A DNA stretch of 64,000 nucleotides from an uncultured Candidatus Saccharibacteria bacterium (GTDB taxonomy: Bacteria > Patescibacteriota > Saccharimonadia > Saccharimonadales > AWTP1-31): positions 19,101-83,100 of the forward strand of contig CAZXTE010000001.1 of the NCBI GenBank assembly GCA_964643545.1, given 5' to 3'. The notes under the pieces are model-generated. The model made no database searches, was not told where the DNA came from, and saw only the letters and a list, made by a program, of their open reading frames with translations. The position numbers were made by a program, and so were the translations under genes. This document shows, piece by piece, positions 33,252 to 54,919 of this stretch (position 1 is its first letter; each line of letters starts with the position of its first letter).

Positions 33252-33281
33252 GGGAGGCCCTACGATGGCCTACAATACTAG

Positions 33282-34355
33282 GTGATGGCAATCGTTAGTC
33301 TGCAACTAGAAAACTTTCGTACATACTACCGGGATAGTTTCGAATTCTCGGAAGGGGTTAGTATTATTGTTGGTCCAAATGCCAGCGGTAAAACCAATCT
33401 TCTGGAAGCTATACTACTGCTCTGTGAAGGCCAATCGTTTCGCGCCAAAGATCACGAACTTATTAGCCACGAAAAAGACTATGCCCGAATTGAAGGTTTG
33501 GTGGGTATAGATAAGCGCATTGTTTTGATAGAGCACGATGGGATAGAGCGAAGCACAAAAACACACCAGATAAACACCCAAAACCTAAAACGTTTACCAC
33601 CAGCAAAACGAGTGCCGGTGGTGCTGTTCGAGCCGGAAATTTTACAGCTTTTCCAGGGTGGACCCGAAAAACGAAGAGAGTATATAGATAGTCTGATTAG
33701 CCGGACTACCCCAGGATTCAACACAATACTGCGTCAGTACAGGCGGGTCTTAAGCCAACGAAACGCGTTGCTAAAAAGGCAGCAAGCACCAAAGCAGGAA
33801 GAGTTCTTTGCCTGGGATGTCCGACTAAGTGAATTGGGTGGTCAGATTGCCACTGCGCGCAATCAGCTCATCGACAATCTCAACAGCTCAATAAATGAGG
33901 AGTATCAGAAGATAGCTAGCAAGAACAATAATGTGAGCCTTGAGTATCTCTCTAAAATATCGTCATTGTCGTATAACACCAAAATGCTCCACATGCTCGA
34001 GCAGGTATTCCAAACCGATCGGGAACGGGGGTATACAAGTGTCGGGCCTCACAGAGACGACTTGCAAGTGCTTTTTGATGGTAAAGATGCGAAACAGGTA
34101 GCCTCCCGCGGCGAGATGAGATCATTGGTGTTAACACTAAAGATACTTGAGCTAAAGATCGTAGAAGAGGCAGCCCAAAAGCAACCAATACTACTACTCG
34201 ACGATGTGTTTAGCGAACTTGATGGTGCTCGCCGCAAGGCCCTGACAGAATCAATACAACAATACCAAACCTTTATTACGACCACAGACGCAGACCTAAT
34301 CGTGAAGTATTTTATTGGAGCCTGCGAAATAATCCCCACTAACAGAGCAGTCTAA
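33282..34355 (+). CDS. recF: DNA replication and repair protein RecF
   Basis: Walker A GPNASGKTN and the SMC-like signature LSGGE-equivalent region are present, with a Walker B LLLDDV. It sits in the dnaA-dnaN-recF synteny. Confidence 0.85.
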   Translation: MMAIVSLQLENFRTYYRDSFEFSEGVSIIVGPNASGKTNLLEAILLLCEGQSFRAKDHELISHEKDYARIEGLVGIDKRIVLIEHDGIERSTKTHQINTQNLKRLPPAKRVPVVLFEPEILQLFQGGPEKRREYIDSLISRTTPGFNTILRQYRRVLSQRNALLKRQQAPKQEEFFAWDVRLSELGGQIATARNQLIDNLNSSINEEYQKIASKNNNVSLEYLSKISSLSYNTKMLHMLEQVFQTDRERGYTSVGPHRDDLQVLFDGKDAKQVASRGEMRSLVLTLKILELKIVEEAAQKQPILLLDDVFSELDGARRKALTESIQQYQTFITTTDADLIVKYFIGACEIIPTNRAV

Positions 34356-34987
34356 CGGTTGTTTATATTCCGTATGACTGACTCGGGAACTTTTGGAAAC
34401 TCTTTGATGTACAGAATGATCGTTGGACCTGCGGCAATTGACCAGGTGTTACCACTCTTCTTTAGAACAACCAACAAGATATCATCTTGTTCTGGGTCTA
34501 GCGGGAGGAGCTTCCCGGCATACCAGTCACCTCGCAGATAAAGCTTCCCATCGGAAATAGTGTATTTTGAGATATCATCGAAGTCGCTACGTATAACAGA
34601 CTCCACTGCAGACTTTTGAGGAACGAGCATTTCTTGCAAACGACTGTCGCTATACGAAAGTTCGGGGGTTTGAACGGTAGTTTTAGAGCTAATATTCAGT
34701 TGCTTGGATTCTGTTTTATACACACCACCACTAAAGACTGCGTTGTAATATCCTTTGGAGACTCTGACCGTTGTTTTCTCCTGAGTACGTACGATCTCTT
34801 TGGTGCTGGCTGGGTAGTTGGTGCCAGACTGGGTTAGTGTAATGGTTGTCCCTTGCTCTGGGATCAGAGTGACGCGCTTAAGGCCAAAGAAATATCGAAA
34901 ACCAAACCAGGCAACAAGCCCAAAAACCAACACAATAGCACCGAACGTTACCAGGCGCTTAATTTGAATTCGGGGTGGCTCTTCCAT
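34352..34987 (-). CDS. bitopic membrane protein (N-terminal TM, ~180-aa external domain), candidate VirB8-like T4SS subunit
   Basis: A single N-terminal TM (LVTFGAIVLVFGLVAWFGF) is followed by a soluble domain. It is the last gene of the long minus-strand T4SS-like operon. The VirB8 assignment rests on topology only. Confidence 0.4.
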   Translation of the reverse strand: MEEPPRIQIKRLVTFGAIVLVFGLVAWFGFRYFFGLKRVTLIPEQGTTITLTQSGTNYPASTKEIVRTQEKTTVRVSKGYYNAVFSGGVYKTESKQLNISSKTTVQTPELSYSDSRLQEMLVPQKSAVESVIRSDFDDISKYTISDGKLYLRGDWYAGKLLPLDPEQDDILLVVLKKSGNTWSIAAGPTIILYIKEFPKVPESVIRNINNR

Positions 34988-34988
34988 G

Positions 34989-35387
34989 TTAGTCTCCTGA
35001 CTGAAGGTCTCTAAATATTATTTCCAAATCACTAGGGTCATAACCTTGGGAGCGTATCCAGGTTAGTGCTTCTTGCCTGGCCTGTGGATCGGGGGCTTTA
35101 ATGAGAAGCGCTACCGAATCGTTACTGTCGGGTGAGACCAATGACTTCCCGTAATCTATACGGAAGTAGAGGCCGAGTGCAGGGAGTTTATCTACGATGC
35201 TGCTTTTTGCACGGACTGCCGCATCTTTTTCTTGGTAAGACGTACCACCTGCTCTTTCTTTTTCTTGGGTGCTTTTTGTATTGTTTGTTTGGGTCCTTGT
35301 CGTCACCCCAAGAATAAGTAGCCCGAACATGACGATGCCAATAAGTACGGCTATGACAATGATTTTGCTGCGTGGGTTTTCCTGCAT
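34989..35387 (-). CDS. small bitopic membrane protein
   Basis: 132 aa with an N-terminal TM (IIVIAVLIGIVMFGLLILGV). It sits in the operon 1 nt from its neighbour. Confidence 0.45.
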   Translation of the reverse strand: MQENPRSKIIVIAVLIGIVMFGLLILGVTTRTQTNNTKSTQEKERAGGTSYQEKDAAVRAKSSIVDKLPALGLYFRIDYGKSLVSPDSNDSVALLIKAPDPQARQEALTWIRSQGYDPSDLEIIFRDLQSGD

Positions 35388-35400
35388 TACTTCGTCTCCC

Positions 35401-37863
35401 TTATTTAATTCTCGCTACCGAGAAGTGATGGCCACGATCTTCCAGGTAGGCGTTACCAGCTTGTGGCGCCTGGGAGCCGAGTGAAGCCTGGCGCATGTTA
35501 TACGTGCCTCCCTGTGTCCCGACGTAGATGAATGTGTGTCCCTGGTCACCCGCTGCATAGATCAGTATGTCACCCGGCAACAGCTTGCTTGTGTCGTTTA
35601 TATCGTCAAAAACGGTGTACTTTTCGGGATGACTTCGGAGATACTCAAGTTGTGTTCCGGTGTCGACTTTCGGGTAACTCGTGTCCACCCCGCTACTGAG
35701 CATAACCGTAGCCACAAACCCACCACAGTCAGTTACGTCGGGTGTCGGATTGAATTGTTTCTTGGTATCGAGGAATTTTTGTGTTGCCGTTGCCCCATGG
35801 CCTTTGTCCGGCCACGCGAGGCTTATTGCGGTAGCCACAACATCACCCGCAACAGCAGCATTCCCCCCGGCATCAGGAGACCCTGTGCAGGTACCTGCAC
35901 TAGACCCACCACCACCCCCAACATAGTCTGCACCAATTGCAACCTTGTCGTAGTCACCCTCAGTGTCGCCAGGCCAAGCGATTTGTGGGGCGCCCGGTTT
36001 CTCATCGAGGCCGCCTAAATAGGCAAAGATAGCTCCCGCCCCCATGCGTCCGCTGTTGTCCAAGCCGTAATTACCGTATCCATAGGCGGCAGAGCCCAGA
36101 TATGCACTCCAGGTATTGAGCCATTCGTTGGCCCCAAAAGTTCCATCCTGAATGGCTGCAATAACCTCGGCACCAGTCTTCTGTGGGTTTCTTCTTGTTG
36201 CATGAAGGATAAGAACCCAGGTCGAGTAGTCGATATCTTGCACATTAGACCCATAACCACGTCTAGCTGGGGCACGTCCAGGGACTTGCTCGGGAGTATC
36301 AAAGAATCCGGGCACGCCCACATCGGCGGAATGCCACTTGTACTGCTTGCCGCCCAACTCAGCAGCAGTCGGAAGCTTCCGGCCATTAATCATAGATTGT
36401 TCTGGGTTCGAACTGCCTTCACGCCAGTGCGTTGCTGCTAGTGCCTGCCACGGCACGCCCCAACGCGCCCCAATAGACTTGTAGACAGGGATCTCCCTCA
36501 CGATATCACTTTTTATAAGTGCATCGAGTTTTGACTCTAACCCCTTGCCTTTAATCATTACATTATCGGGGTAGGTCTTGTAGCTGGCGTCAGCGGGTGT
36601 CCCTGGGTTACCGCCACCCCCGCCAGGAGCTGGCGCCCCGGGTTGGCGGATTGCATTAATACGATCCAAAGACTGCTGGATGCGCTGATTCGTTATTTTT
36701 CCTGCCTTATAGTCGGATTCAAGCCGGTCAAGCACCTTCCCAACCGATGATTCATTCACAAAAACAGCCATGTCTGCGCCTGCCGCGATCGCCATAGACG
36801 TTGCCTCCTCTACGCCGTATTTAGACTTAATGGCTTCCATGGTGCCTATGTCGTCTGTCATTGCGACACCGTTAAAGCCGTATTTATCGCGCAATAGTTT
36901 ATAGGTCTCGGGGCTCAAACTCGTTGGTATGCCACCAGTTGTTAGTCCGGGCACATTAAGGTGGCCCAGCATAACAGCAGACCTCGGGTTCTTTAGTAGT
37001 TTTTCGTAAGGCTTTAAATCCCTACCCTCCAGAGTTGCTAAGTCACTGGTTGTCACAACCTGTTTGTGCGAATCGCCATTGGCATAACCATGACCTGGGA
37101 AGTGCTTAAACACGGGCGTAAGGTTGCCTTGGCGGAGTCCTTCGGCAAACGCGCCAGACTTTTTTTCTACAACCGCAGGATCTTTCGAGAATGCCCTGTC
37201 CAAGGGGCTAATAACGGCAGAGCCACCATCGAGGTCTGCCACAGGCGCAAAATCCATGGTTAGTCCAACGGCTGCAAGCTTGTCCGCTTGGCCCTTCGCA
37301 ATGCTCTGAACTTCTGTGTCTGTTTTCGTACCCATTTCCCGAGCACTGGGCACAACGCCGAGCGGACGAAAGCGCTGTACTTTACCGCCTTCTTCGTCGG
37401 CAGCCACCAACATGGGTACAGGACCGGCTTTGAACTTATCGATCCACGTTTTATCTTTCTGCTCAAATTGTCGTCCCATCAAGAAGACTCCCCCCACATG
37501 GCTATCAATCAAGGCTTGAGCTTCTGACTCATTTGTCACAGAGACCATCAACAGTTGGGCGAGCTTCCCGCGGATGCCCCACTCAGCTGGAATTTCATAG
37601 CTGGCGCCAGTTGTTGGGCCTGTTGTTTCGCACTTCTCTTTGGCGTAGTTTGTCTTGTGGTGTTCCGTGTTTAGGAGGATGTGGTACAGATCGTCCTCGG
37701 GTATTTTTGCAGCCATTCCAAGTGGGATGATTGCTTGGAAATACAGCATGGTGAGAATGAACGACGCGCAAAAGAGGCGGAACAGGTGCTTTTTCTTCAC
37801 TATAGACATAGACATAGGCATGGTGTTATTAGCTCCCAGTATGAGACCAATGCCATGGCTCAT
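35401..37863 (-). CDS. secreted multi-domain peptidoglycan hydrolase: GH3 beta-N-acetylhexosaminidase (NagZ-like) plus C-terminal CHAP/NlpC-P60-like domain
   Basis: The KHFPGHGYANGDSH motif is a GH3 hallmark. A Gly/Pro linker (PGGGGGNPGTP) follows, then a middle domain, then C-terminal Cys (DCGGFVATVM) and His (GHTFIYVG) papain-like motifs. It has an N-terminal signal anchor. The real start may be an internal Met at 37821, 37815 or 37809, which would remove the 35-nt overlap. Confidence 0.7.
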   Translation of the reverse strand: MSHGIGLILGANNTMPMSMSIVKKKHLFRLFCASFILTMLYFQAIIPLGMAAKIPEDDLYHILLNTEHHKTNYAKEKCETTGPTTGASYEIPAEWGIRGKLAQLLMVSVTNESEAQALIDSHVGGVFLMGRQFEQKDKTWIDKFKAGPVPMLVAADEEGGKVQRFRPLGVVPSAREMGTKTDTEVQSIAKGQADKLAAVGLTMDFAPVADLDGGSAVISPLDRAFSKDPAVVEKKSGAFAEGLRQGNLTPVFKHFPGHGYANGDSHKQVVTTSDLATLEGRDLKPYEKLLKNPRSAVMLGHLNVPGLTTGGIPTSLSPETYKLLRDKYGFNGVAMTDDIGTMEAIKSKYGVEEATSMAIAAGADMAVFVNESSVGKVLDRLESDYKAGKITNQRIQQSLDRINAIRQPGAPAPGGGGGNPGTPADASYKTYPDNVMIKGKGLESKLDALIKSDIVREIPVYKSIGARWGVPWQALAATHWREGSSNPEQSMINGRKLPTAAELGGKQYKWHSADVGVPGFFDTPEQVPGRAPARRGYGSNVQDIDYSTWVLILHATRRNPQKTGAEVIAAIQDGTFGANEWLNTWSAYLGSAAYGYGNYGLDNSGRMGAGAIFAYLGGLDEKPGAPQIAWPGDTEGDYDKVAIGADYVGGGGGSSAGTCTGSPDAGGNAAVAGDVVATAISLAWPDKGHGATATQKFLDTKKQFNPTPDVTDCGGFVATVMLSSGVDTSYPKVDTGTQLEYLRSHPEKYTVFDDINDTSKLLPGDILIYAAGDQGHTFIYVGTQGGTYNMRQASLGSQAPQAGNAYLEDRGHHFSVARIK

Positions 37864-40800
37864 TCCAGTACTGCTTTAGATTATACTTTCCGGCGTTATC
37901 TATGAGCCAGTCCCACATCGGCATGCCGGGGGCAACACGAGGGTTGCTGGGGCTAGCTTTCCCACCATTTTTTGTGCCAAACTCCTCAGGGTGACCAACT
38001 CGAGTAAGCGCAAAATCTACGGCATCACCAGACTGATGTCTAGATGTTCCAGGCTTTGCGACATCGGAGTAGACGCCGTTAGGGCACTTATCATCTTTTG
38101 CGCACAGCTCTTGTTGGTGCTTCATGGTGCGAAAACTACTGGAGGCTTTGGGTGAGACGCCATCGCTCTTCATGGCGTTAAACATGTTCACCCAATCATT
38201 TGATTTGTCTGCTGCCACGAGTACGTTACCATCTGCCCCATTTACGTAATATTGACTACGCGGATTACTCTCCTCGCTTGAACTTGGGAAGCCAAGGATC
38301 GCACACAGGGTTATCTTCTTTAGAACGCCACCTTCATACCCATCGGCAAGCCCCACGTTCTTGGTGCCACTTGCACAGGTTCCGTCGCCCGTACCTCCCG
38401 TAGAGGCGGGGGGTGGTCCAAGACTCGCCACAAGAAAGTCGCTCTTTGCCAGGTATCCTGCAGCAGTATGGTGAATTTTATCTGGCGCAAACGGATACTT
38501 AGCTGGATTTTTAGCCACCTCGGCACGCCAGTCAATGGGTGTATATTTCAGGGCAGCCGCCTGGCTCGAAACTGCCGCCGCGACAGCATCGTAATTGGAA
38601 ATTTGGGTTTTTGCATTCATCCAGAATATCTTCGCCGAGGGGTTGTATTCGTGGATTTTGTCGACCATGAGTTTTATTTTGCTCGCGAACTGGGGGCTGT
38701 CTGGTCCTGGGTTTGTGCCCAGCATGACCGCTATTGTCCCGGCACGGCTAACTTCGTTTCTATCGAGGTCGATCTTTTCTAGAGATCGGTCAACGTCTAT
38801 ACCGTCGGTTGCCTGGACCTTGGTAACTTCCCACCCAGCAGTTTGCAGCTTGTTCGTTAATGAGCCTAAGTCTTTCATGCCGTTTGTCAACGAGTCGCCA
38901 ACGACGTAGACTGCATTATTGCCACCCCCACTATTTGAACCTCCGCCCCCGCTGGTGGTTTCAGATTCATAATCTTCCGGGTCGAGCACATCAGTTGTAT
39001 ATCGGCCACCAGCTGCCGCCACAGCCTTCTTATTTAGCAAGCAAGGGTTTTCCTTGGTGTGCACGTCGGTGCCCGTCTCCTTGTCCTCTATAAGCGTACC
39101 TGCAAATTCACCGCGCCCATTCGCCCAGTCTTTATCCATCTTTTCACAGACGGCGTCGGTAAGCGTGTCTGGGTCAACATCAAGTGCTGACGAATTCTTT
39201 GGAAAGCCATATTGGACGACACCAAATGGGTCAGGCTTTGCATCTGCTGCAAAGGTCTTTTTGGTGGCAAGTAAACTGCCAAAACTTTTTGACAGGCTTG
39301 TGAATGGATTTGCGAGAAGACCGGTGACGCCTGTATTGGCGGTTCTAGTCACACTGCTGGGTGTAGCCATCGCCATTTGGCTGACAAGTGATTTTGGACT
39401 CTCTGTGCTGAACATACGAGCAAAGAATGGTTGACGTTGGAATTCCTCGTTGCGCTGATTCTCTTGGTCGGCGCGAATCTCGGCTACCTGGGCGTCGGTG
39501 AGGCGTATGCCCCCCAGGCCATAGTGTGCATCATTATTCCCTGCTACATCGGCACCGCCTGCGAGCATATCGAATGTGCGGGCCCCGCTCATGTCTGCAG
39601 ACACTGGTGACGGGATTAGCCACTTCGCAATTGTTTCGAATATCTTGCCGATTTGTTCCTCAATCATCTTCTTTAGGTCAGCGTATTGAGGAAAGATCTT
39701 GCTAATTGCTGCCTCGACAGCACCTACGCCCAGATCAATGAGCTTATTGATCAAGTTAAGGATTTGTCCGATTGTGGCGTTCCATGCATCTGCCGTCTGC
39801 CCGAGCAGACTAAGTGGGGGTTGATTAAAGATGTCAGATATTTTCTGGATGACCCCATTGGTAAGCAGACTTTCCTCTGGGCAAATAAGCTTACCGGTGT
39901 CTGGCTTATTCTTATCGTCACATGTGTATTTTGGCTCTGACGCAGTGCTGCCCGTTTCTGCTGCGTATGCTTTTTGCGGCGACAGGACATCCAAAAAGGA
40001 GCTTTTTTGTATTGGTTCGCCTAGGATGTCCCCGTAGAGTGGTGCTAATTCAGCGGGTTGATTTTTGTGGTCTTTATCACCGGCGCTGTCACCCACACCA
40101 TTCGTCATGCTACCGAGCAACTCGACGTTACAATGCATGCCTTTGCACTCGTCTGCAGTTGTTCTATACAGCATGTAGGTTGCCACCATTTGCGTGCCAA
40201 TAATTTCGTATTTCCAGCGTTTCAATGCCGGCCCAGCTGACTTAGCTTTCGCGGTAATTCTGGCTGCTAGGTCAATCCAGCCAATAACAGGCAAGCCTTT
40301 CGAGGCGGCTGACCCTGCAGCCTCTCCGGCAATCTTCGCAACAACCTCTTCAACAATAAAAGCAGTTAAGCTCTTGTCTGCGAGTTTAATTGTCTTCTCA
40401 ACAATTTTTTCTACGGTCTCCTCGGTGAATTCTTTGCCAGACTTCTCAAGTGCCTCACGAATTTGTTTCTCTATTTTGTCTCTCCTCACTCCGTCATTGT
40501 CAGCTTCACCCTTCGATGCTTTGTCCGAATCACAGGCAGGATCGATGATACACTCTAATACAAAACCCAGATGTTGAGTGTAGGGTATGATGACCCGGCG
40601 ATTAATGACGAGCCTGAAGGCTCCCTTCTTTTTGTCTTTCCAGTCGTCTATGCGATCTTTTGATTTGCACGCAAAAACACACCTCCGGATGCCGTATTTT
40701 TCTTCCAGAAGTCGCCCCACCTTGAATCGGTACATAACACGCTTCCACAATGTCTCTTCTTTGAAAGACTCACGTACTTTTATGCGAACATCATTTCTGC

Positions 40801-41575: not shown

Positions 41576-41601
41576 GGTTGTTTATACGGCTCCGACCATA
41601 G

Positions 41602-44387: not shown

Positions 44388-44427
44388 GCTACCTGTCTAC
44401 CCACTCCCTTGGTGCTCAATTGATAAT

Positions 44428-45471
44428 TTAACGCAGCGATATTATTACTTCACCATCGTCAGTCTTTGATTGACTGGGGTGGTTCTTCTCTGCCTCTCGT
44501 GCCAAACTATCAATCGGGCGATTATTCTCGATTGCTAGGTTCAGTATATCAGGCGCAGGTGCTGCTGTCACCCCTGGTGATTTTGGTTGTGCTTGCGGGG
44601 GCTGACTCGAAAGCGGCTGGAGCTTTCTGTGGTTACGAAACGACTCATCTGGGTGGCTTTTTTGCTCGTGTATCTTGTTTAGTAGCGCCTGCTCATTTGC
44701 GTCTGGTATTGCTGGCTTGGCAAAAGTCGGAGCAGGTGTTGACCCTCCCTGTGATTGCACGAACCAGCCTCCTGGGGGTGCGATATTGGTGCTCGGTGCT
44801 TGTTGCTCCCGAGCAACTTCACGCATGTGAGAGACTGCCTCTTGTTGGTGCACTTCCTTCGACTGGGCAATTTGGGCATCGAGCCGAGCGGCCGTTTGAT
44901 TATCAAAAATATCATCCTCTGCTCGAACATCTATGGTCGAGACCTGCTTTGGCAATTCCTCGACCGCTACAAGCCTGTCCGAGCTTGGCGCCATAGCTAA
45001 CGAACCGTAAGAGGGCTGTGCAAATAAGTTCACGTCCACGTTCTTAATAACCCAACCACGGCTGTCTATGGTTGTTGCCAGCGCCTTAAGGCGGCTTTTG
45101 ACTTCGTTCTGGCTAAGGTTATCAGAGAAGTTCTGTTCAATATGTTTTGGAACAGTTATCTTGACCAGTTCCTTCATGCCCGACTGGTCCCAAATGCGTT
45201 TACGTGGCTTAAAGTAAAAACGGAGCTTAGCGAGGAGCCATACCTCAGTGGGCTGATCTCGACCCCACGGGAACGCCAAAAACCCAAAGACAATCTCTAT
45301 AGGCAACAAAATAACCGCCACAAACCATACATTGTGTGTAAGGCCCAAGAAACTTATGTAAAGACTGGTTACAACAATCGCCCCAAAGATAAATTGTTTC
45401 AGCGTTAAGGGGCCAAGGAACTTATCCTCTGCCTCAATATCCTGGAGAACTTTATACGTAGCCACTAGCAT
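44428..45471 (-). CDS. membrane protein with N-terminal TM hairpin, candidate VirB3-like T4SS subunit with extended Pro/Gln-rich tail
   Basis: Two adjacent N-terminal TM helices (FIFGAIVVTSLYISFLGL / VWFVAVILLPIEIVFGFLAF) sit immediately upstream of virB4. This position and topology are typical of VirB3/PrgI/TcpE. Confidence 0.45.
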   Translation of the reverse strand: MLVATYKVLQDIEAEDKFLGPLTLKQFIFGAIVVTSLYISFLGLTHNVWFVAVILLPIEIVFGFLAFPWGRDQPTEVWLLAKLRFYFKPRKRIWDQSGMKELVKITVPKHIEQNFSDNLSQNEVKSRLKALATTIDSRGWVIKNVDVNLFAQPSYGSLAMAPSSDRLVAVEELPKQVSTIDVRAEDDIFDNQTAARLDAQIAQSKEVHQQEAVSHMREVAREQQAPSTNIAPPGGWFVQSQGGSTPAPTFAKPAIPDANEQALLNKIHEQKSHPDESFRNHRKLQPLSSQPPQAQPKSPGVTAAPAPDILNLAIENNRPIDSLAREAEKNHPSQSKTDDGEVIISLR

Positions 45472-45523
45472 TTAGTATCTGATATTCATCAGAAGCATGC
45501 AAGTTTTATAGAGGAAACTTGTA

Positions 45524-46495
45524 CTAAAGAGCTGGAGGTCCGGCAGGTGGTGCTGGAGGTGCAGCGGGCGGAGGCGGCAGTGCAGCTATGCGGGCAGCCT
45601 CTGCCGTAGCAGCTGCCTGGGCATCCAGATTGGCAGTTGCAAGTGCGGCAGTAGTTTGTATCTCGTTTAAGACCGCCCGCTCTGCATCGTATCTACCGAC
45701 GGCTGCATCAAGCAGGTTCACTCTCGTTTCTTTGGGGGTAGAAGCGCGTTTGTATTGAGGGCTAAATTCACCCAGAATTTTAAAAGCATCAAATCCACCA
45801 CCCTCCTTGTCGGGTCGCCTAGGGCGTTCCCGGGCAATGGGCATGTTGCTCTCGAATGGACCAAGGTCAGGCGTTGGGGAATAGGAGGTATCCTCTCCTA
45901 GGAGTGCTGGCCCCCGTGATGGAACGTGGCCTTCAAAGAATTCAAGCCCTGTCCCCACAATCCTACCAAGCGCTCCTGGATCGTCAGAGACGTGTTTTCT
46001 GCGACCCGTTGGGATGACTTCACGCCTAATGCTAAACACGGCAAATATTGGAGAGCCGCCGTCTCGGGCAACTTCCACCGGTGTGCTATAGGTTGTTTCA
46101 ACGCGTCCTATCGGCTGCTCTTCTCGCGAAATTCTGCCAGGTATGCGACTTCGCCGGTCTATACCAGGCCCTCTTGTTCGCAGGGCGTTTTGTCGCATGC
46201 GATCGGGCTCGCTTCTTTGGGTACGCTCTGCATCAACACCAATTCGCTGGATTAAGTCATCAACGTCTGCGGCTACTCGCTCTTGTTCTCCGTAGAATTC
46301 AAGCACAGCTTCCGCACCCCTGTGAATGTCCTGTGTTGCCTCAACGTGCGCTTCCCTTGTAGCCTCTTCATCATCACGTCGATCGTGTCTGGCCGTCTGT
46401 AATCTACGACGGAGGTCTTCTTGGTAGGCTGCTTGTTCTGGGCTAGGGATATCGCTCATAGTGTATTTTTGTTTTAATAGTGAGTAACAAATCAA
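45524..46495 (-). CDS. hypothetical protein with Pro/Ala-rich N-terminus, T4SS-operon member
   Basis: 323 aa. The N-terminus is low-complexity (PPPPAAPPAPPAGPPAL). It lies between the virB6-like gene and the virB3-like gene in the same operon. Confidence 0.45.
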   Translation of the reverse strand: MICYSLLKQKYTMSDIPSPEQAAYQEDLRRRLQTARHDRRDDEEATREAHVEATQDIHRGAEAVLEFYGEQERVAADVDDLIQRIGVDAERTQRSEPDRMRQNALRTRGPGIDRRSRIPGRISREEQPIGRVETTYSTPVEVARDGGSPIFAVFSIRREVIPTGRRKHVSDDPGALGRIVGTGLEFFEGHVPSRGPALLGEDTSYSPTPDLGPFESNMPIARERPRRPDKEGGGFDAFKILGEFSPQYKRASTPKETRVNLLDAAVGRYDAERAVLNEIQTTAALATANLDAQAAATAEAARIAALPPPPAAPPAPPAGPPAL

Positions 46496-46547
46496 CAGTA
46501 CACTATTTTGGTTAATAAGTCAACAAGGTTGTGTAAAGTCATCTATA

Positions 46548-49500
46548 CTATTGGCGCTTGGTGGGGTCGTTGCCAACATCTATTGGGATATCCTCTCCAG
46601 GAAGTGGGGTACCGGACCGTCCCGCTGGACCACCCGGTACAGTTGAGCGTGTTGGAGTACCGGCTATGGGGTCTGCTCTGCCTGTGGTGCCTACCTCGCG
46701 GCTCCACTCGACGGGGTCAGTTGCGGCGTGCCCTGTAGCTGGGTCGATCCTAGAACTAGTTTCAAATAATGCGTAAAAGTTCTCCATTTCTTCTTTGGTG
46801 CGTCCGCTAGCACCACCACCAACTTGGGTGATCATTCTTCCAGTTGGGGTACCGCTTGCCGTCATTTCCGGTACTGTCTGGCCGATGCTGCGTGCAATTC
46901 GAGCACCACGTTGGATAACTTCATTTGCGGCTGCCTGTTCATCGGCTGTTGCAGCTGGGTTAGCGAGTGTGGTACGAGCACGAACGACTTCTTCTGACAT
47001 TGTAGTCCAGGTGTCCGGATGCTGTTGTGTCATCTGGTATGTGCCTTGGCGTTCATCGATCTCTTGCATAAGGGCTGTGGCATTCATGGTTAGTCCATTC
47101 TCGCCGTATTGGTAATGCTTCCACTCGCGGTCGGTATTCTGGTTGGCGAAGGCCGCACCCGTCCATATGCCACCCATTTGGCCTGTAGTAGCATTTTCGG
47201 CAGCACCACCACGTGTTGCTAGGCGACCAACGTTCTGGTACAGGTAATCATGTTGTTCTTGGGTGGTGGCTTTGCGCATTTCGTAACTAAGAGCGTACTG
47301 TGCAGCATCTTGGTCCCCACGCCAGCGATTGTGTGCCGCATCCACGGCACTTTCGTCGACCCATTTCCCACCAAGTGTTTTATATTGACGTGTATTATTG
47401 TGGATTCGAACATGACCATTCCCGTCCGGGTCGTAGAGGTTGCCGGCTATAGCATCGGCCTCCGCCTTGTTTACAGTCAGTGCTCGTACCTCAGTATCAT
47501 CCCCGGTAGAGGTCAGCTGCTCCATTCGTTTTTGTGTTTCGCCACGCATTGCTGTAATACCCTCCTCGAGGTTATAGCCACCAACACGCCCCTGCAAGAA
47601 TCGCGCGCTTCTGCCAAACCGACCGCCCCTGCTGGCGTAGGTGCCAAGGGCACGGTATTGACGATCTCGTGCTGTTAGCATGCGGCGCTGCACATCTTGT
47701 TTGGCCTGTTCTTTGCGACTTTTGGTGAGCCCTCCAACCTTTGCGGTGCCCCCAGCAACGGCTGCATAGAGTTTGCCCATGGCTCCCCCGGCAAACTTGA
47801 AAGCAAAAGGAATCAGGAATAATGGGATAATTTGCAGCGAGAATGCGATGAGACCCGCAAGTCCCGCGGAAACAGGGTTGGGACTTCCGGAAGTCCCTAC
47901 GGCGTCATTTGCTACGAGTATTGTTGCGCTCAATATGCTGGCAGTCGAGAATATAACAACAACAATTGGGAACACTAGTAATGTCTCGAATAATAAGTTC
48001 CACCACTTTTTAAAATATTGTTCGGTATTTGGGAGGCAGTACAAAGCAAATGCAACGGGGCTGACCATAATGAGGGCTAATATAATGCCGCGCCGAATAA
48101 CGAGCGTTGCAAAGACCGCAAGGATGGCTAACATTGCCGGAACGACAATGCCGATAAGAATAAAAACTGCCGCCTTCCCCAGGAACCCTGCCGTTAAAAA
48201 CCCACCCAGGAACCCTGCAATACCTGCAGCCCCAAGAAACAATGCGAGAACAGTAGTTAGTACTGCGCCAAGTTGCGCCCCTGGGCTGGGAGCTGCATGA
48301 AGCAAATCGGCCACTGGGGCCATCATGAGCTGGGCAATTCCCTTGCCAAGAACGTTGGTGATGTCCACGAGCAAAGCCACAATGTAGACAGATAAGTTTA
48401 TGAGTATGGCCGCTATTAATATGCGTGGCATCACTTTCTTGGCTGTATACGCATCGATAATGCCTCCACCGATAGTTTGCCCAAAAACAATGACCAGCAT
48501 GGCTATGATGAGGAATATATTGCCATAAACGCGAAATGCCGACCACGCCTTGAAGCTCGGGTCTGATGGGTCGGTAGAAACAGGGCTGGTATATAAAAGA
48601 GGGGATACAAGATTCTTAAAAAGCCAGTCAGTTGTTTCGGCAAACATATTAAAGACAGGGCAAAGTATCCAGTTTAGGCTAAAACCAGATGCTTCGCAGG
48701 TGGCGTTTGTGTCGTCCGATGTGCCGTCCGTGTTCCCACCCCCAGACGGGTTACTGCCCCCACTATTATCTCCCTGATTTCCTTTAGAATCTTCAATTTG
48801 TTTCTGGTAATCGCCATCAAGATCCTTCATGAGCTTAGATAGGTCTGGGGTAAAGCCGTCATCTTCCAAAATATGGAAACATTTTTTATTCTTGTCGCCG
48901 CCACACTGCTGAGAGTTACTGTTCGTATCTAGATTATAGACGAGACTACTCCCGACCATCTGCACTGCGTAATTATCTGCCGTGATTGCGGCACTGGACC
49001 ATGTTACGTCATCTTGGTCTACTTCAAAGTCTTGATTGATGGTGAGTGCAATTGTTATCTCTTTGCCATCCTTGTCCTTTATGACGGATGCTGCACCACT
49101 ATTGTTGTTGCCAGGCAGCTTAATGAGACGAAAGCGAAAATTACCCGACTTTTTTAGAAAGGCGAGCTTGTCTGCCTGGGCACTAGCTTGTATGTAGTCT
49201 TTATCGCCAGCTTTAATTTTAAAGTGGACGCTTACTTTTCTTTGATTAAGTGGGCTGATATCGATACGTGACGTACATGTCTTGTCTCGATACGATTTGT
49301 CGGCAAACTTTTGGTGTTCCTCCCAGACCCCTGAGCTCTTAAGCTTTGAGTAGAGCTTTTCGGCTTGATCTGCATAAAACCTCTTGGTGCTCGCGTCGCC
49401 GCCATTACGAATGTCCCACAAGTGGTCCTGATCTTTGGGGTTGCCTTTCTGGTAGGTAAATGTGCCAGGAAAGCACAGGTCCATGGTAAGCCGTGCATCT

Positions 49501-49844
49501 CCATTAACAAATGTGGCAATACGGGGCGCAGCTACTGTAGAAAACTCAGCCGAGGCAGTCTTATAGGTATAGTCACCATTATCCGGGATAGATTCTGCTT
49601 TGTTATCGGCGCGAATGTAAGGCAAGTCTCGATCCGTGCGGGTTGTAAAGACATCCTTTCCCGGAACACGATTATAATTTGAGTTCACATCGTCATCATA
49701 AGGACTGGTAGCGTATGCTATTTGTGGCGTGAAAATAATAACGCCAGCAAGAAGCTGCAGGATGATAAATGATATAAAAGCAAATGGAATAAGCTTGCGG
49801 TTAGATCTCACAACTGAAGTATAGATTAACGGAATTAAATACAC
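46548..49844 (-). CDS. large polytopic membrane protein, VirB6/TrbL-like channel subunit with N-terminal extracellular and C-terminal cytoplasmic domains
   Basis: 1098 aa. Signal anchor, then a ~380-aa external domain, then about 8-9 TM helices (residues ~400-690), then a ~400-aa hydrophilic tail. It is the first gene of the operon containing virB4. Confidence 0.55.
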   Translation of the reverse strand: MYLIPLIYTSVVRSNRKLIPFAFISFIILQLLAGVIIFTPQIAYATSPYDDDVNSNYNRVPGKDVFTTRTDRDLPYIRADNKAESIPDNGDYTYKTASAEFSTVAAPRIATFVNGDARLTMDLCFPGTFTYQKGNPKDQDHLWDIRNGGDASTKRFYADQAEKLYSKLKSSGVWEEHQKFADKSYRDKTCTSRIDISPLNQRKVSVHFKIKAGDKDYIQASAQADKLAFLKKSGNFRFRLIKLPGNNNSGAASVIKDKDGKEITIALTINQDFEVDQDDVTWSSAAITADNYAVQMVGSSLVYNLDTNSNSQQCGGDKNKKCFHILEDDGFTPDLSKLMKDLDGDYQKQIEDSKGNQGDNSGGSNPSGGGNTDGTSDDTNATCEASGFSLNWILCPVFNMFAETTDWLFKNLVSPLLYTSPVSTDPSDPSFKAWSAFRVYGNIFLIIAMLVIVFGQTIGGGIIDAYTAKKVMPRILIAAILINLSVYIVALLVDITNVLGKGIAQLMMAPVADLLHAAPSPGAQLGAVLTTVLALFLGAAGIAGFLGGFLTAGFLGKAAVFILIGIVVPAMLAILAVFATLVIRRGIILALIMVSPVAFALYCLPNTEQYFKKWWNLLFETLLVFPIVVVIFSTASILSATILVANDAVGTSGSPNPVSAGLAGLIAFSLQIIPLFLIPFAFKFAGGAMGKLYAAVAGGTAKVGGLTKSRKEQAKQDVQRRMLTARDRQYRALGTYASRGGRFGRSARFLQGRVGGYNLEEGITAMRGETQKRMEQLTSTGDDTEVRALTVNKAEADAIAGNLYDPDGNGHVRIHNNTRQYKTLGGKWVDESAVDAAHNRWRGDQDAAQYALSYEMRKATTQEQHDYLYQNVGRLATRGGAAENATTGQMGGIWTGAAFANQNTDREWKHYQYGENGLTMNATALMQEIDERQGTYQMTQQHPDTWTTMSEEVVRARTTLANPAATADEQAAANEVIQRGARIARSIGQTVPEMTASGTPTGRMITQVGGGASGRTKEEMENFYALFETSSRIDPATGHAATDPVEWSREVGTTGRADPIAGTPTRSTVPGGPAGRSGTPLPGEDIPIDVGNDPTKRQ

Positions 49845-49931
49845 AAAACTAACTACAGTCGTTAAGGTGATTGCGCAAAATAATGACTTTTATGGTTAAA
49901 TAAAGAGTACTAACGCAACACGTAATAAAAA

Positions 49932-50450
49932 ATGAACGAAAACAATAATCAAACACCAGCAGAAACCGTAGACTACAGTTTCATAACGGATCAACCCACG
50001 GCATCTCCAAAAAAGAAACCTAATAAAATGATCGCCATATTTCTCGGGTTGACGTTGCTCGTTATTTTGGCGGCGGGCTTACTGTTGTTAGTACAGTCCA
50101 AAAAAAGCACAACCAAAAGTAACATCGACGCAGAACAGGTCGTCCGACAACTTTTTGTAGATATGGGGAACGGGGATAATATCGCCGCCCTAAACGCATT
50201 TACGGGGCCAAATAAGCCGGATGCTGCGTACCTTGAGGGCTACTTAATAGCTCCGCTGAAGAATGATTACTTGGTAGATTCATGCACATTTACCTCTTCA
50301 GAAACAAAAGTAGCTAGCTATTACCAGGTCAAGGCATCTTGCCCACAAAAGCAAGCAAGTAACATCAGAATTCGTGTAGACTTTACAGTTATGAGACAAG
50401 AGCTATCATCGAAAATTGTTGCATACTCTCTTGGCGGGGTAGATACGTGA
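49932..50450 (+). CDS. bitopic membrane protein, divergent from the T4SS operon
   Basis: 172 aa with a TM at residues ~33-54. It overlaps the next gene by 4 nt. Confidence 0.5.
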   Translation: MNENNNQTPAETVDYSFITDQPTASPKKKPNKMIAIFLGLTLLVILAAGLLLLVQSKKSTTKSNIDAEQVVRQLFVDMGNGDNIAALNAFTGPNKPDAAYLEGYLIAPLKNDYLVDSCTFTSSETKVASYYQVKASCPQKQASNIRIRVDFTVMRQELSSKIVAYSLGGVDT

Positions 50451-51433
50451 AATTGGTAAAGCGGGTTCACACCGCCGGATTAGTTATCCTATCTGTCGCT
50501 GGTCTACTTAGTGCAACATTATTCGTACATCCAAAATCGGTCCAAGCAGCCGCGCCAATATGCTATGAGCTACTCGGCAGCTCTGGTAATGATGTCCGAG
50601 TGGCTGACTGTAATAATCCCACAGTAGTTACTTTAAGAGACCAAAAGTACCCTGCTGACAAAAAATTTCTTGACGATCACTGTTACCTATATGGTGGATT
50701 TGGATTTTTCATAAAACGAGGTTTAACAGAAGTGCCGCCTGCGAGCGATGCAAATAAGAAATACACCTGTGAGTGGGCAAGAAAAGCGGCGGCTGCAGGT
50801 CAGGCAGCCGCTCCAAAATGTTACTTATTCTCTCGTGCGACGTTGGACGATTACTTTTCATTTAAATTTGCCGCTACAGATATCAAGGAAACTGCGTGCA
50901 CGCAAGAATTAAAGAATTACTACAGGTTTGTTCACAATCCTAAAGAAATAGAAAGCGGGTGGTGCTACCTATTCAGCCAAGATCATAACAACATCCAGAC
51001 ATCATGTGCAGACCTTCTTTCCAATATTGCAACTGCAGATAGTAGCGGAGGCGGGGGCGGCGGCACCTCCAGTTGCGCAAGCGATCCAACGCTTTCTTTC
51101 TGTGTGGACCTGCCGGTTAAGACCAATGATACGTGCGGCGAAGCTGGTAGCGGTACGGAAGTCCAGATATCGATCAATGTGGGATGTGTGGGCAAAGGTA
51201 ATGGCATTCTTGATCTGACCTTTGCGCTCATTCGATTTCTCTCTTATGGTGTGGGCATTGCCATGGTGGCCTCTTTAGTTGTTGCTGGCATACAGTACAG
51301 CTCCTCTAGAGGTGATCCACAGGCTACCAGCAAGGCAATAGGTCGTGCGCAGAGCACTGTTGGGGCGTTACTTCTGTTCTTGTTTATATATGCTATATTG
51401 AACTGGATAATACCCGCAGGACTCTTGAAATGA
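50447..51433 (+). CDS. Cys-rich secreted protein with C-terminal VirB2/TrbC-pilin-like helix-loop-helix
   Basis: 328 aa with a signal peptide and at least 12 Cys, followed by a Gly-rich linker SSGGGGGGTSSC. The C-terminus has two hydrophobic helices flanking SSSRGDPQATSK. This is the same module as in the five downstream paralogs. Confidence 0.55.
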   Translation: MKLVKRVHTAGLVILSVAGLLSATLFVHPKSVQAAAPICYELLGSSGNDVRVADCNNPTVVTLRDQKYPADKKFLDDHCYLYGGFGFFIKRGLTEVPPASDANKKYTCEWARKAAAAGQAAAPKCYLFSRATLDDYFSFKFAATDIKETACTQELKNYYRFVHNPKEIESGWCYLFSQDHNNIQTSCADLLSNIATADSSGGGGGGTSSCASDPTLSFCVDLPVKTNDTCGEAGSGTEVQISINVGCVGKGNGILDLTFALIRFLSYGVGIAMVASLVVAGIQYSSSRGDPQATSKAIGRAQSTVGALLLFLFIYAILNWIIPAGLLK

Positions 51434-51819
51434 CACTCCCCCTAACCTATTTTGCAGCAGCTTGTGAAGCTGGGAAAGACACCGCCGGGCAGGTGTTAAA
51501 CTTCTTTGCATTTCCTACGTGGTACAAATATCTTGAAGGGCAGACTATCACAAGTAACGGTGCCGCAGAATGTGCCCCTAAAATCACTAAGATTGGTGAT
51601 GCCTGGTTGGTGTTGGCGGCTGTTATAGAAATAATGCTACGAGTCGGTGCACTCATTGCGATAGCATTTGTTATCTATGGGGGCATATCGTTTATTACCA
51701 GCGAAGGACAGCCAGATAAAGCATCAAAAGCCAGGAGCACAGTAATAAATGCAGTTATTGGGCTGGCACTTTCGATTTCGGCATCGGCGGTAATCTCTTT
51801 CATAGCAAGGAGCTTTTAA
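51430..51819 (+). CDS. VirB2/TrbC-pilin-like small membrane protein (paralog 2 of 6)
   Basis: 129 aa. The helix-loop-helix has the loop ITSEGQPDKASKARS. It overlaps the upstream gene by 4 nt. Confidence 0.55.
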   Translation: MTLPLTYFAAACEAGKDTAGQVLNFFAFPTWYKYLEGQTITSNGAAECAPKITKIGDAWLVLAAVIEIMLRVGALIAIAFVIYGGISFITSEGQPDKASKARSTVINAVIGLALSISASAVISFIARSF

Positions 51820-52140
51820 GTGACATTCAACGTATTTGCACAAACACAGCCCCCACCTACTTCACAGGTTGGTGTTTGTACTACAGATTTGTGCAACACA
51901 AATCTGCCCGCAGTGAGTGCAGGAAGCACGCAAGTGACTACGGTTTTGCAGATCTTGTTTGGAGTGGTAGCAGTGCTGGCGCTTATTTATGTCATTTTGG
52001 CAGGTTTGAAGCTCATCACTTCCAGCGGTGATCCTCAGTCAGTAGCAAAAGGACGACAACAGATACTCTTTGCAGTTATTGGCCTGACAGTTGCACTCAG
52101 CGCCGAACTAATCATTTCATTTGTAATCAACAGGCTATAA
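51820..52140 (+). CDS. VirB2/TrbC-pilin-like small membrane protein (paralog 3 of 6)
   Basis: 106 aa with a CTTDLC Cys pair and the loop ITSSGDPQSVAKGRQQ between two hydrophobic helices. Confidence 0.55.
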   Translation: MTFNVFAQTQPPPTSQVGVCTTDLCNTNLPAVSAGSTQVTTVLQILFGVVAVLALIYVILAGLKLITSSGDPQSVAKGRQQILFAVIGLTVALSAELIISFVINRL

Positions 52141-52142
52141 TC

Positions 52143-52550
52143 ATGAGAAAATTAACACTAGTTATGGCAACCGTACTAGGCAGCATGCTTTTTGCGCTGC
52201 CGAATACAGTATTTGCGGTAGATGTTTTTGGGGGGTCGGACGGTGCTTGTACACAAGCAAATACCACGGGCGAAGTTCCGGAAATATGTAAGGACACCGT
52301 GAACGCAACGGGCGAGAACCCTATAGTAGGGCCGAGTGGTATTGTCACCAAGGGTTTACAAGTACTCGTCATTGTAATCGGCATCATTGCGGTTGTGATG
52401 TTAGTAATCTCTGGGCTACGACTTATTATGTCGGGCGGTGATCCAAAAAATGCGGCCAGCGCACGAGATGGCATACTGTACGCCGGTATTGGTATAGTAG
52501 TAGTAGTGACTGCACAACTGCTGATCAACTTTGTATTAACAAAACTGTAA
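52143..52550 (+). CDS. VirB2/TrbC-pilin-like secreted protein (paralog 4 of 6)
   Basis: 135 aa with a signal peptide and a Cys pair (CTQANTTGEVPEIC). The loop is IMSGGDPKNAASARD. Confidence 0.6.
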   Translation: MRKLTLVMATVLGSMLFALPNTVFAVDVFGGSDGACTQANTTGEVPEICKDTVNATGENPIVGPSGIVTKGLQVLVIVIGIIAVVMLVISGLRLIMSGGDPKNAASARDGILYAGIGIVVVVTAQLLINFVLTKL

Positions 52551-52558
52551 AGGAAAAA

Positions 52559-52969
52559 ATGAAAAAAATTGCCCGTTTCAGGAAAAACTTGGTAGTAGCA
52601 CTGGCGTCTGTGTTCTTCTTAGTACCGCTCTCGCCTGTTCTGGTGCATGCAGGACCATTCGACAGCGCCAAAGACGCAGCATGTAAGGGTTTAAATTTTG
52701 ACGACCCTACGGCCACGTGTGCTGCAGGCTCTAAGGACGCAGAAACAAATGCCAAGCTAAAGACGGCCGTGAATCTTTTGTCGGCTATTGTGGGTGTAAT
52801 TGCAGTAGTTATGATTATCATTGCAGGCATGAATTTTATAACTGCAGGAGGAGATTCGGGCAAAGTTTCAACTGCCAGGAATATGATTCTGTACGCTGCA
52901 ATTGGTATTGTAGTTGTAGCCCTCGCACAACTGATCGTCCGCTTTGTCTTGCAACGATTCGGGAAGTAG
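52559..52969 (+). CDS. VirB2/TrbC-pilin-like secreted protein (paralog 5 of 6)
   Basis: 136 aa with a signal peptide and a Cys pair (CKGLNFDDPTATC). The loop is ITAGGDSGKVSTARN. Its C-terminal 20 aa are near-identical to the next paralog. Confidence 0.6.
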   Translation: MKKIARFRKNLVVALASVFFLVPLSPVLVHAGPFDSAKDAACKGLNFDDPTATCAAGSKDAETNAKLKTAVNLLSAIVGVIAVVMIIIAGMNFITAGGDSGKVSTARNMILYAAIGIVVVALAQLIVRFVLQRFGK

Positions 52970-53031
52970 CTGTTGTAACTTCCCTCAAAGTTGTGATATA
53001 AACATAAGTAGCAATATAGAAAGGTAAAAGA

Positions 53032-53460
53032 ATGATTAAAAAATTAAAACGTTTAGTAGTTGGCTTCACCGCTTCGGCTGCACTGTTAATGCCTTTGGCT
53101 ATACCTGTGGCTGTTCACGCGCAAACGACTGAAGACATTGGAAAGAACTTTTGTCAGGGGGCAGACATAACACTCGGTACTGGTACGGGTAGCTCTGCAA
53201 CCTGTGATACCAAAGATGCAGAAAGCAAAGTGAATACTACCGTAAAGAACTCGCTCAATCTTTTTTCGGCAATAGTTGGTATTTTGTCTGTAGTCATGAT
53301 CATTATTGGTGGTGTTAAGTACATCACCTCTGGTGGTGAATCTGGCAAGGTTACCTCAGCCAAAGACAGCATTTTGTTTGCGGTCGTCGGATTGATTGTC
53401 GTGGCTCTTGCACAACTGATCGTCCGCTTCGTCTTGCAACGATTCGGTAACCCCACCTAA
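53032..53460 (+). CDS. VirB2/TrbC-pilin-like secreted protein (paralog 6 of 6)
   Basis: 142 aa with a signal peptide and a Cys pair (CQGADITLGTGTGSSATC). The loop is ITSGGESGKVTSAKD, and the tail ALAQLIVRFVLQRFG is shared with paralog 5. Confidence 0.6.
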   Translation: MIKKLKRLVVGFTASAALLMPLAIPVAVHAQTTEDIGKNFCQGADITLGTGTGSSATCDTKDAESKVNTTVKNSLNLFSAIVGILSVVMIIIGGVKYITSGGESGKVTSAKDSILFAVVGLIVVALAQLIVRFVLQRFGNPT

Positions 53461-53481
53461 GAAAGTTAGACGTATTAAAAA

Positions 53482-53509
53482 AGCTCCGGGTAACCGGAGC
53501 TTTTTATTT
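53482..53509. terminator. bidirectional rho-independent terminator
   Basis: The stem is AGCTCCGG/CCGGAGCT with a GTAA loop, and it is flanked by an A-run and a T-run (AAAAAAGCTCCGGGTAACCGGAGCTTTTTATTT). It lies between the convergent pilin array and hsp20. Confidence 0.8.
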
Positions 53510-53521
53510 GGTCGAGGTATT

Positions 53522-54004: not shown

Positions 54005-54123
54005 GTATGTTACCCTCCACTTGCAATAGTTTTTTGTGGTATTTTTATCTTACTTAGCAGTATAACCTAGGTAAAACCACCCAGCAACCTAAGACGGTAT
54101 ATTTACAACACAATAATAACAAC

Positions 54124-54829: not shown

Positions 54830-54919
<90 letters not shown>

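Follow-up and report, generated by a model that had tools for sequence, protein, structure and literature searches.

A chromosomal, most likely non-conjugative type IV secretion locus with a divergent pilin array beside dnaA-dnaN-recF in a Candidatus Saccharibacteria genome

The stretch of DNA analysed here, referred to throughout as the window, is a 64-kb segment of a Candidatus Saccharibacteria genome. Positions 34352–53460 of the window carry a type IV secretion system (T4SS) and pilin block, in which a nine-gene operon on the minus strand faces a seven-gene array on the plus strand. The locus is read as a chromosomal, non-conjugative T4SS of Saccharibacteria, an exapted relative of the monoderm MPF-FATA machinery that would act at the contact between epibiont and host (probability about 0.9). 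For this reading gene content, family membership, topology, synteny and conservation were computed from the window and its relatives, essentiality is taken from Southlakia epibionticum ML1, and pilus assembly, substrate and direction of transport are deduced. The system is already known and typical of Saccharibacteria, having been described since 2020, and the window holds one more orthologue of it and not a new kind of system. The core of the original prediction, which had been made from the letters of the window and proposed a minimal Gram-positive-type T4SS, fixed in the chromosome and probably engaged in host interaction, is supported. The same prediction called the combination of parts unusual, which it is not, as the combination is the rule in Saccharibacteria and has been published (PMC7427843, PMC10633639, PMC12102498, PMC12857230).

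A region with VirB4, VirB6 and PrgI and four to six small secreted proteins, lying beside a comF-type gene, was described by McLean et al. (2020) in TM7x and throughout Saccharibacteria (PMC7427843). In S. epibionticum, SEML1_0006–0019 were annotated by Wang et al. (2023) as a Gram-positive-like T4SS that has neither a coupling protein nor a relaxase, with a pilin series noted as unusual and essential (PMC10633639). The gene tables of ML1 give the same order as the window, with dnaA-dnaN-recF directly before it and hsp20 and comF (SEML1_0020/0021) at its end, and most genes of SEML1_0004–0019 were essential for growth by transposon sequencing (PMC10633639). Quinonero-Coronel et al. (2025) surveyed 2,474 virB4 genes and reported for Patescibacteria an MPF-FATA affinity, TrsD, PrgI and VirB6, no relaxases, proximity to dnaA/dnaN, and 441 pilin arrays of 2–11 genes with ~25% identity (PMC12102498). 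In a 2025 FEMS review the system is counted among the newcomers to the T4SS superfamily, and the functions proposed for it are effector delivery or uptake of host molecules (PMC12857230; PNAS perspective; 2026 preprint). No other T4SS is known to be essential for the growth of its owner, and no other monoderm T4SS is known with VirB2-like pilins; the system is also a leading candidate for resource extraction by ultrasmall epibionts from their hosts.

The locus of the window is the positional and compositional counterpart of SEML1_0004–0019. It shares with ML1 (PMC10633639) and with Nanosynbacter lyticus TM7x (PMC7427843) the position between dnaA-dnaN-recF and hsp20-comF, the strand arrangement, and the order of small β-sandwich proteins, two hydrolases, VirB4, a protein of ~290 amino acids (aa), PrgI, VirB6-like protein and divergent pilins. 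Six PF18895 pilins and an N-terminal extension on the second gene of the pilin array are also common to them. Only one VirB6-like gene is present, whereas in ML1 two such genes (SEML1_0011 and 0013) flank an NTF2-like gene (0012). The hydrolase encoded directly after virB4 (slot 1) has an added SGNH domain, and the second hydrolase gene downstream of virB4 (slot 2) encodes GH3 and NlpC/P60 domains in place of the two lysozyme-like domains and cysteine peptidase of ML1. One PEGA-family gene is shortened to 132 aa, and the window has two extra genes, a 323-aa orphan and a 172-aa, putatively NTF2-like gene heading the pilin operon. No essential difference is seen from the Patescibacteria T4SS clade of the survey, which shares an MPF-FATA-related VirB4, TrsD-like and PrgI-like proteins beside virB4, VirB6, the lack of a relaxase, VirB2-like pilin arrays (~25% mean identity) and dnaA/dnaN proximity (PMC12102498). 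As that survey found few VirB1 and VirB8 homologues, what the window adds to it is which hydrolase and β-sandwich domains fill the VirB1 and VirB8 positions.

Relatives of the locus were collected by a VirB4 scan of one genome per species, in which 580 were confirmed and 80 loci were kept, ranked by VirB4 similarity; all 80 belong to metagenome-assembled genomes of Saccharibacteria, Saccharimonadales or Patescibacteria. The closest contig in this one-per-species collection, DAISWP010000001.1 (L001), is 88.8% identical in nucleotides (nt) over 21.9 kb (window 31596–53482). Mismatches between the two fall at third codon positions in 55–94% of cases in every gene of the block, and because of this concentration all of the genes, including two orphan-like ones, behave as real coding genes.

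The 637-aa protein had been predicted to be a VirB4-family ATPase with a DEAW Walker B motif, and this is borne out by hidden Markov model (HMM) searches. It scores 346.8 bits against NCBIfam NF045971 (VirB4-like conjugal transfer ATPase, CD1110 family; cutoff 325), matches TraG P-loop, AAA_10 and DUF87 in Pfam, and aligns with Thermoanaerobacter VirB4 (PDB 4ag5) at E = 7.8e-47. Both the Walker A (GAGKS) and Walker B (VDEAW) motifs are present. The alignment covers positions 182–734 of the 752-position CD1110 model, and the N-terminal ~180 residues found in full-length relatives are missing. The adjacent 290-aa protein, the stop codon of which overlaps the virB4 start (ATGA), aligns to positions 4–118 of the same model and so complements the 637-aa protein; it also matches the NCBIfam TrsD model at E = 1e-05, below the cutoff. 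No similarity between the two proteins was detected by BLASTP, which fits a split gene and not a duplication. VirB4 is interpreted as being encoded in two pieces, with the TrsD-like protein as a putative separate N-terminal domain. A two-piece VirB4 has been reported for Patescibacteria (PMC12102498).

The 347-aa protein, named earlier as a VirB3-like protein with two transmembrane helices, matches Pfam PrgI above the cutoff (E = 3.4e-11) and does contain two such helices (residues 24–42 and 48–66), followed by a long low-complexity C-terminal tail. The VirB6/TrbL-like polytopic protein of the original prediction, 1098 aa long, is polytopic, with seven transmembrane helices. It begins with a signal/anchor helix and continues with an ectodomain of ~400 aa, a highly conserved core of six transmembrane helices (residues 380–690) and a helical cytoplasmic domain of ~320 aa. 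The top four Foldseek matches are all TrwI/VirB6 and the best solved structures, R388 VirB6, match weakly. The likeness to VirB6 is therefore weak, and an extended VirB6-like polytopic protein is a provisional assignment suggested by the structural model. The C-terminal helical domain (residues 710–1030) is modelled with a predicted local distance difference test (pLDDT) score >90 and has no convincing structural match; it may serve as a docking platform in place of the coupling protein. A precomputed PF19590 label is attached to many VirB6-like homologues.

Between the VirB6-like and PrgI genes lies the gene for the 323-aa protein, which is rich in Ala, Arg, Glu and Pro, charged, and devoid of transmembrane helices. 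No family was matched in Pfam or NCBIfam, and among the related loci L001 alone holds a relative, against which the gene shows a coding-type substitution pattern. Roughly half of the related loci have a soluble open reading frame (ORF) of 240–770 aa in this slot, and between species these ORFs show no detectable similarity to one another.

The matches of VirB4 bear on whether the machine exports material or takes it up. A DNA or RNA uptake machine that feeds nucleotides to the epibiont, similar to Helicobacter ComB or archaeal Ced, is possible, although it is regarded as rather less probable than not. VirB4 has matches to the DNA-import ATPases CedB and CedD (1.4e-12 and 8.6e-06), but these are restricted to the P-loop region and are far weaker than those to conjugative VirB4 proteins. 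The missing coupling protein and relaxase fit import, and so does the conserved comF-like neighbour gene; in ML1, however, comF (SEML1_0021) is non-essential whereas the T4SS is essential. Uptake has been raised in a PNAS perspective and in a 2026 preprint that deals with feeding on host RNA and possible T4SS pili, both of which point to the lack of nucleotide synthesis in Patescibacteria. Uptake is in any case a sub-hypothesis on the substrate and not another identity for the locus.

On the opposite strand, the original prediction placed six VirB2/TrbC-pilin-like paralogues at 49932–53460. Six copies with a pilin hairpin are indeed present, five of them above the family cutoff, but the ORF at 49932–50450 is not one of them. 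The 129-, 106-, 135-, 136- and 142-aa ORFs pass the gathering score of PF18895 (T4SS_pilin) with 27.7–51.2 bits versus 26.6, and three of these five have sub-threshold TrbC/VirB2 matches (E = 2e-4 to 0.012). The sixth copy is the C-terminus of the 328-aa protein (residues 268–321), where PF18895 matches below threshold (E = 0.006). The five tandem paralogues are 21–48% identical to the 142-aa copy, with a conserved I(T/S)SGGD loop between the helices of the hairpin, and a two-helix hydrophobic hairpin with a conserved loop is common to all six copies. A signal-peptide-like N-terminal hydrophobic segment is found in the 328-, 135-, 136- and 142-aa proteins and not in the 129- or 106-aa proteins. 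The 328-aa protein, with homologues in 52 loci, consists of a signal peptide, two Cys repeats of ~80 aa (CYxL...C...C), a Gly6 linker and the C-terminal pilin hairpin, and is a possible candidate for a minor or tip pilin, VirB5 being absent from the system.

These results also bear on the idea that the small hydrophobic paralogues are membrane-resident or secreted effector-like or toxin-like subunits and not pilus subunits. McLean et al. (2020) likened the array to the pertussis toxin subunits of the ptx/ptl locus, but the identity to pertussis toxin S1 was only 11% (PMC7427843). Sequence comparison gives no match to a solved pilin, the PDB sequences having returned only spurious TPR and capsid matches to a profile built from the six pilin domains, and monoderm T4SSs are normally without pili (PMC12102498). 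Set against this are the PF18895 matches above cutoff with sub-threshold TrbC/VirB2 matches in the same region, the hairpin and loop conserved in every copy, and the match of the ML1 orthologues to TrbC/VirB2 structures with a template modelling score of ~0.75 (PMC10633639). A toxin-like role is considered improbable.

The 172-aa protein that heads the pilin operon contains a conserved cytoplasmic PDYxFI motif, one transmembrane helix and an ectodomain with two invariant Cys residues, and no pilin match was found for it in Pfam. The word-indexed homologue search yielded seven relatives of this family and one of the 211-aa protein discussed below, and PDB sequence searches with the two proteins gave no useful match. 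As only seven relatives were found, the AlphaFold2 model of the 172-aa protein is of low confidence (pLDDT 53.8); it shows three helices followed by four strands. The top Foldseek matches of the model are generic NTF2-like proteins (E ≥ 0.027), with no VirB8/TraM or other T4SS protein among them, and one homologue (P0126) carries PF05223. The ectodomain is probably NTF2-like, at low confidence, and as a VirB8-type candidate the protein is weak at best. A copy with identical sequence (P0123) occurs on NCBI and Logan contigs (SRR14932662, SRR11524814).

The two bitopic proteins at the distal end of the minus-strand operon had been put forward as VirB8-like candidates. In the related loci, an iterative HMM search places the 211-aa and 132-aa proteins in one family, usually arranged as a tandem pair of ~200-aa genes or as a fused gene of ~500 aa. 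Ten of 30 members match PEGA and 7 of 30 match CarboxypepD_reg, both of which are β-sandwich domains. The VirB8-like assignment was rejected, as both proteins are bitopic but their family has these β-sandwich matches and not an NTF2-like fold. The 211-aa protein is a bitopic surface protein with one N-terminal transmembrane helix and is likely the counterpart of SEML1_0004/0005, the fold annotation of which, prealbumin-like/PEGA (PMC10633639), agrees with the assignment made here. By its sequence the 132-aa gene is classed as a truncated member of this PEGA/β-sandwich family, in which the transmembrane helix and the C-terminal ALxWIRxxGYDPxDxEIxF domain are retained and the PEGA domain is lost.

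Fusions of CHAP, GH3, SGNH and M15 hydrolases had also been predicted, and of these the GH3, SGNH and VanY/M15 domains are confirmed, with their catalytic motifs intact, whereas the CHAP domain is better described as a weak NlpC/P60 match. The exported 820-aa protein of slot 2 has a NagZ/LpqI-type β-N-acetylglucosaminidase domain of family GH3 at residues ~94–408 (Pfam 1e-63, NF003740 1.5e-47) with the motifs KHFPGHG and MTDD. Its C-terminus resembles the NlpC/P60 cysteine peptidases (Pfam 0.0023; motifs DCGGF and GHTFIY). The GH3 domain is closest to exported actinobacterial enzymes (PDB 4yyf, 1.9e-70; 6gfv, M. tuberculosis LpqI, 1.1e-64; 5iob, 2.5e-57), with ~1e-33 for the next-best solved NagZ-type enzymes. 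Across 52 species slot 2 carries Phage_lysozyme2 (30), SGNH (15), M23 (9), Amidase_3 (6), C39_2 (6), CHAP (6), Glucosaminidase (5), NlpC/P60 (5) and GH3 (2). With only two species having it in this slot, GH3 is the one truly uncommon element of the window. Actinobacteria are the known hosts of cultured Saccharibacteria, and for this reason the domain may have been captured from an actinobacterial host.

The 1248-aa protein of slot 1 is bitopic, with one transmembrane helix at residues 106–124. The C-terminal part contains an SGNH esterase domain (GDSL...DKIH; Lipase_GDSL_2, 1.6e-07) and a terminal VanY/M15 peptidase domain with the motifs SRHQSGDAVD (SxHxxGxAxD) and EPWHW (VanY, 3.9e-15), with PDB matches to 4mph/4jid. 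The N-terminal ~850 aa are conserved and have no family match. In the census of this slot VanY is found in 17 of 47 species, the N-terminal region is conserved, and between species only the C-terminal catalytic domain varies. Within residues 1–880, a cytoplasmic VYDD motif is conserved at the N-terminal side, and so are the ~750 aa that lie outside the membrane, to which no family could be assigned in any of the 47 species. Both hydrolase slots carry different catalytic domains in different species.

The monoderm MPF-FATA systems (pCF10 Prg, pIP501 Tra, pGO1 Trs and C. difficile CTn2) share with the locus a CD1110-family VirB4, TrsD, PrgI/VirB3, a VirB6-like protein and a large membrane-anchored multi-domain wall hydrolase (PrgK, pIP501 TraG), and likewise have no outer-membrane core complex. 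The locus differs from them in having no relaxase, coupling protein, oriT, PrgB-type adhesin or identified VirB8-like PrgL/TraM, in the presence of VirB2-like pilins, in its fixation in the chromosome and in its essentiality in ML1. Tandem VirB2-like genes of divergent sequence beside a non-conjugative host-interaction T4SS are also known from Bartonella Trw and from the Anaplasma VirB2 paralogues. Those systems differ in having a diderm envelope with a core complex and eukaryotic hosts, and the pilins here belong to PF18895 and not to canonical TrbC/VirB2.

Fixation is seen in the gene order, which is the same in essentially every related locus long enough to show it. The series dnaA-dnaN-recF, small exported proteins, two hydrolases, VirB4, TrsD-like protein, PrgI, VirB6-like protein, pilins and hsp20-comF is conserved in ~46 fully covered loci, with hsp20 retained in 36 loci and the comF-like gene in 25. 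Median identities are 85% for VirB4 (80 loci), 71% for the TrsD-like protein (78 loci), 73% for DnaA, 65% for DnaN, 49% for RecF, 42% for PrgI, 36–45% for the pilins and 30–36% for the VirB6-like protein and the hydrolases, the ranking of loci by VirB4 similarity favouring VirB4 in this comparison. The Pfam scans covered the 58 largest non-overlapping ORFs of the window, and no relaxase, VirD4/TcpA coupling protein, integrase or plasmid replication (Rep) gene was found among them, as had been predicted. With neither a relaxase nor a coupling protein, the machine is most likely non-conjugative, and the synteny in related genomes bears out the earlier view of a chromosomally fixed apparatus. The possibility that the block is an integrated conjugative element or its decayed remnant, lying near the origin by chance, was rejected as very improbable: VirB4 does best match conjugative-element families (CD1110/CTn2-type, the Mbov_0397 integrative and conjugative element, TraC), and monoderm conjugation systems typically include TrsD, PrgI and VirB6-like parts (PMC12102498), but the window has neither mobility genes nor tRNA-flanked boundaries, position and order between recF and hsp20/comF are fixed in dozens of species, VirB4 is more conserved than DnaA in the VirB4-ranked loci, the substitution patterns of all genes are those of purifying selection, the locus is essential in ML1, and the GC content of the block (0.45–0.53) shows no sharp contrast with the flanks.

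For the non-conjugative T4SS the following mechanism is proposed. By homology to R388 and monoderm systems, VirB4 and the separate TrsD-like N-domain would form a cytoplasmic ATPase motor docked on PrgI/VirB3 and on a channel built around the extended VirB6-like polytopic protein. The two membrane-anchored hydrolases, in the role of VirB1/PrgK, would make way for the apparatus through the peptidoglycan and might also attack the host wall. The Sec-exported VirB2-like pilins would be drawn out of the membrane and would polymerise to form a pilus or stalk reaching the host cell, and contact-dependent transfer at the epibiont–host interface, as effector export or as uptake of host material, would follow. 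Several points weigh against this interpretation. For none of the Patescibacteria T4SSs has a function been demonstrated, and no pilus has yet been shown to be built from these pilins. No VirB8 homologue was found in the window, where the sole NTF2-like candidate comes from a model with a pLDDT of 54. The gene for a coupling protein might lie beyond the window, as in ML1, which has a distant, non-essential one (PMC12102498). The hydrolases, finally, might act only on the epibiont's own wall.

Across species the locus is split into a strongly conserved cytoplasmic motor and a highly variable outward-facing shell, the latter made up of the slot-1 and slot-2 hydrolases with their swapped catalytic domains, the PEGA proteins, the VirB6 ectodomain and the pilin paralogues. 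A tentative and rather doubtful suggestion is that this shell determines the host range of a feeding conduit, in which the hydrolases would be aimed at the host wall and the pilus and VirB6 channel would import host material. The hydrolase cassette of the window would in that case comprise the rare LpqI-type GH3 exo-glucosaminidase, the SGNH esterase, the M15 peptidase and the NlpC/P60-like domain. The idea of a feeding conduit is in general already in the literature; the part concerning host-directed modular hydrolases is not established. The PEGA assignment, the variable hydrolase slots and the head-on, origin-proximal operon described below are of modest value and could guide experiments on host specificity.

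The genes of the block and its immediate neighbours are listed in Table 1. The ORF map agrees with the nine packed or overlapping minus-strand genes of the original prediction, their spacing being −35 to +52 nt, and the plus-strand genes are joined by 4-nt overlaps or separated by gaps of 0–62 nt. An intergenic region of 87 bp (49845–49931) separates the divergent operons. The position directly after dnaA-dnaN-recF was confirmed by Pfam and is conserved, the recF stop overlapping the end of the convergent T4SS operon. On the other side of these three genes jag, yidC and rnpA lie on the minus strand (Pfam), and the pilin array is followed by hsp20, the comF-like gene, tRNAs and housekeeping genes. 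A promoter and terminator scan of 49600–54200 gave nothing beyond the level of shuffled sequence.

Table 1. Genes of the T4SS and pilin block and its conserved neighbours (window coordinates).
Feature	Position	Strand	Product or remark
Minus-strand gene	34352–34987	−	211 aa, PEGA-type bitopic
Minus-strand gene	34989–35387	−	132 aa, bitopic paralogue of the 211-aa protein
Minus-strand gene	35401–37863	−	820 aa, slot-2 hydrolase
Minus-strand gene	37829–41575	−	1248 aa, slot-1 hydrolase
Minus-strand gene	41602–43515	−	637 aa, VirB4
Minus-strand gene	43515–44387	−	290 aa, TrsD-like
Minus-strand gene	44428–45471	−	347 aa, PrgI/VirB3
Minus-strand gene	45524–46495	−	323 aa, orphan
Minus-strand gene	46548–49844	−	1098 aa, VirB6-like (provisional)
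Plus-strand gene	49932–50450	+	172 aa, not pilin
Plus-strand gene	50447–51433	+	328 aa, pilin-domain protein
Pilin paralogue	51430–51819	+	129 aa
Pilin paralogue	51820–52140	+	106 aa
Pilin paralogue	52143–52550	+	135 aa
Pilin paralogue	52559–52969	+	136 aa
Pilin paralogue	53032–53460	+	142 aa
dnaA, dnaN, recF	30393–34355	+	Pfam; origin-proximal anchor of the locus
hsp20 and comF-like phosphoribosyltransferase gene	53522–54792	− (hsp20), + (comF-like)	Pfam; conserved right-hand neighbours

The block had been described as abutting the replication origin. A fit of GC skew at third codon positions (GC3 skew) with two terms, one for replication and one for the coding strand, places a strand switch at 28–35 kb, in agreement with an origin at the dnaA cluster; no position could be fixed for oriC itself, and DnaA boxes are neither enriched nor clustered (19 found versus 15 expected). 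Given this fit, the 15.5-kb T4SS operon (34352–49844) would run head-on to the replication fork beside the origin, and its orientation is kept in all related loci and in S. epibionticum ML1.

A large gene cluster for cell-surface polysaccharide takes up positions 1–28400 of the window, with genes for RmlA/RmlD, UDP-glucose dehydrogenase, several epimerases, GT2 and GT1 glycosyltransferases, YfhO and GtrA, together with a Wzm/Wzt ABC-2 exporter, a Wzy_C ligase-like protein and an FG-GAP repeat protein. Four ORFs of 413–554 aa at 11440–17853 have no Pfam match. The sole trace of a mobile element in the window, a 137-aa ORF with HTH_Tnp_1 (23819–24232, minus strand), lies inside this cluster. To the right of the block, tRNA genes are found at 54830–55033, 55741–55817 and 62219–62308; three are for tRNA-Ser, two of them adjacent (TGA and GCT, minus strand) and one with CGA, and there is one for tRNA-Arg (GCG). 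In ML1 a tRNA-Ser likewise stands directly after the comF-like gene.

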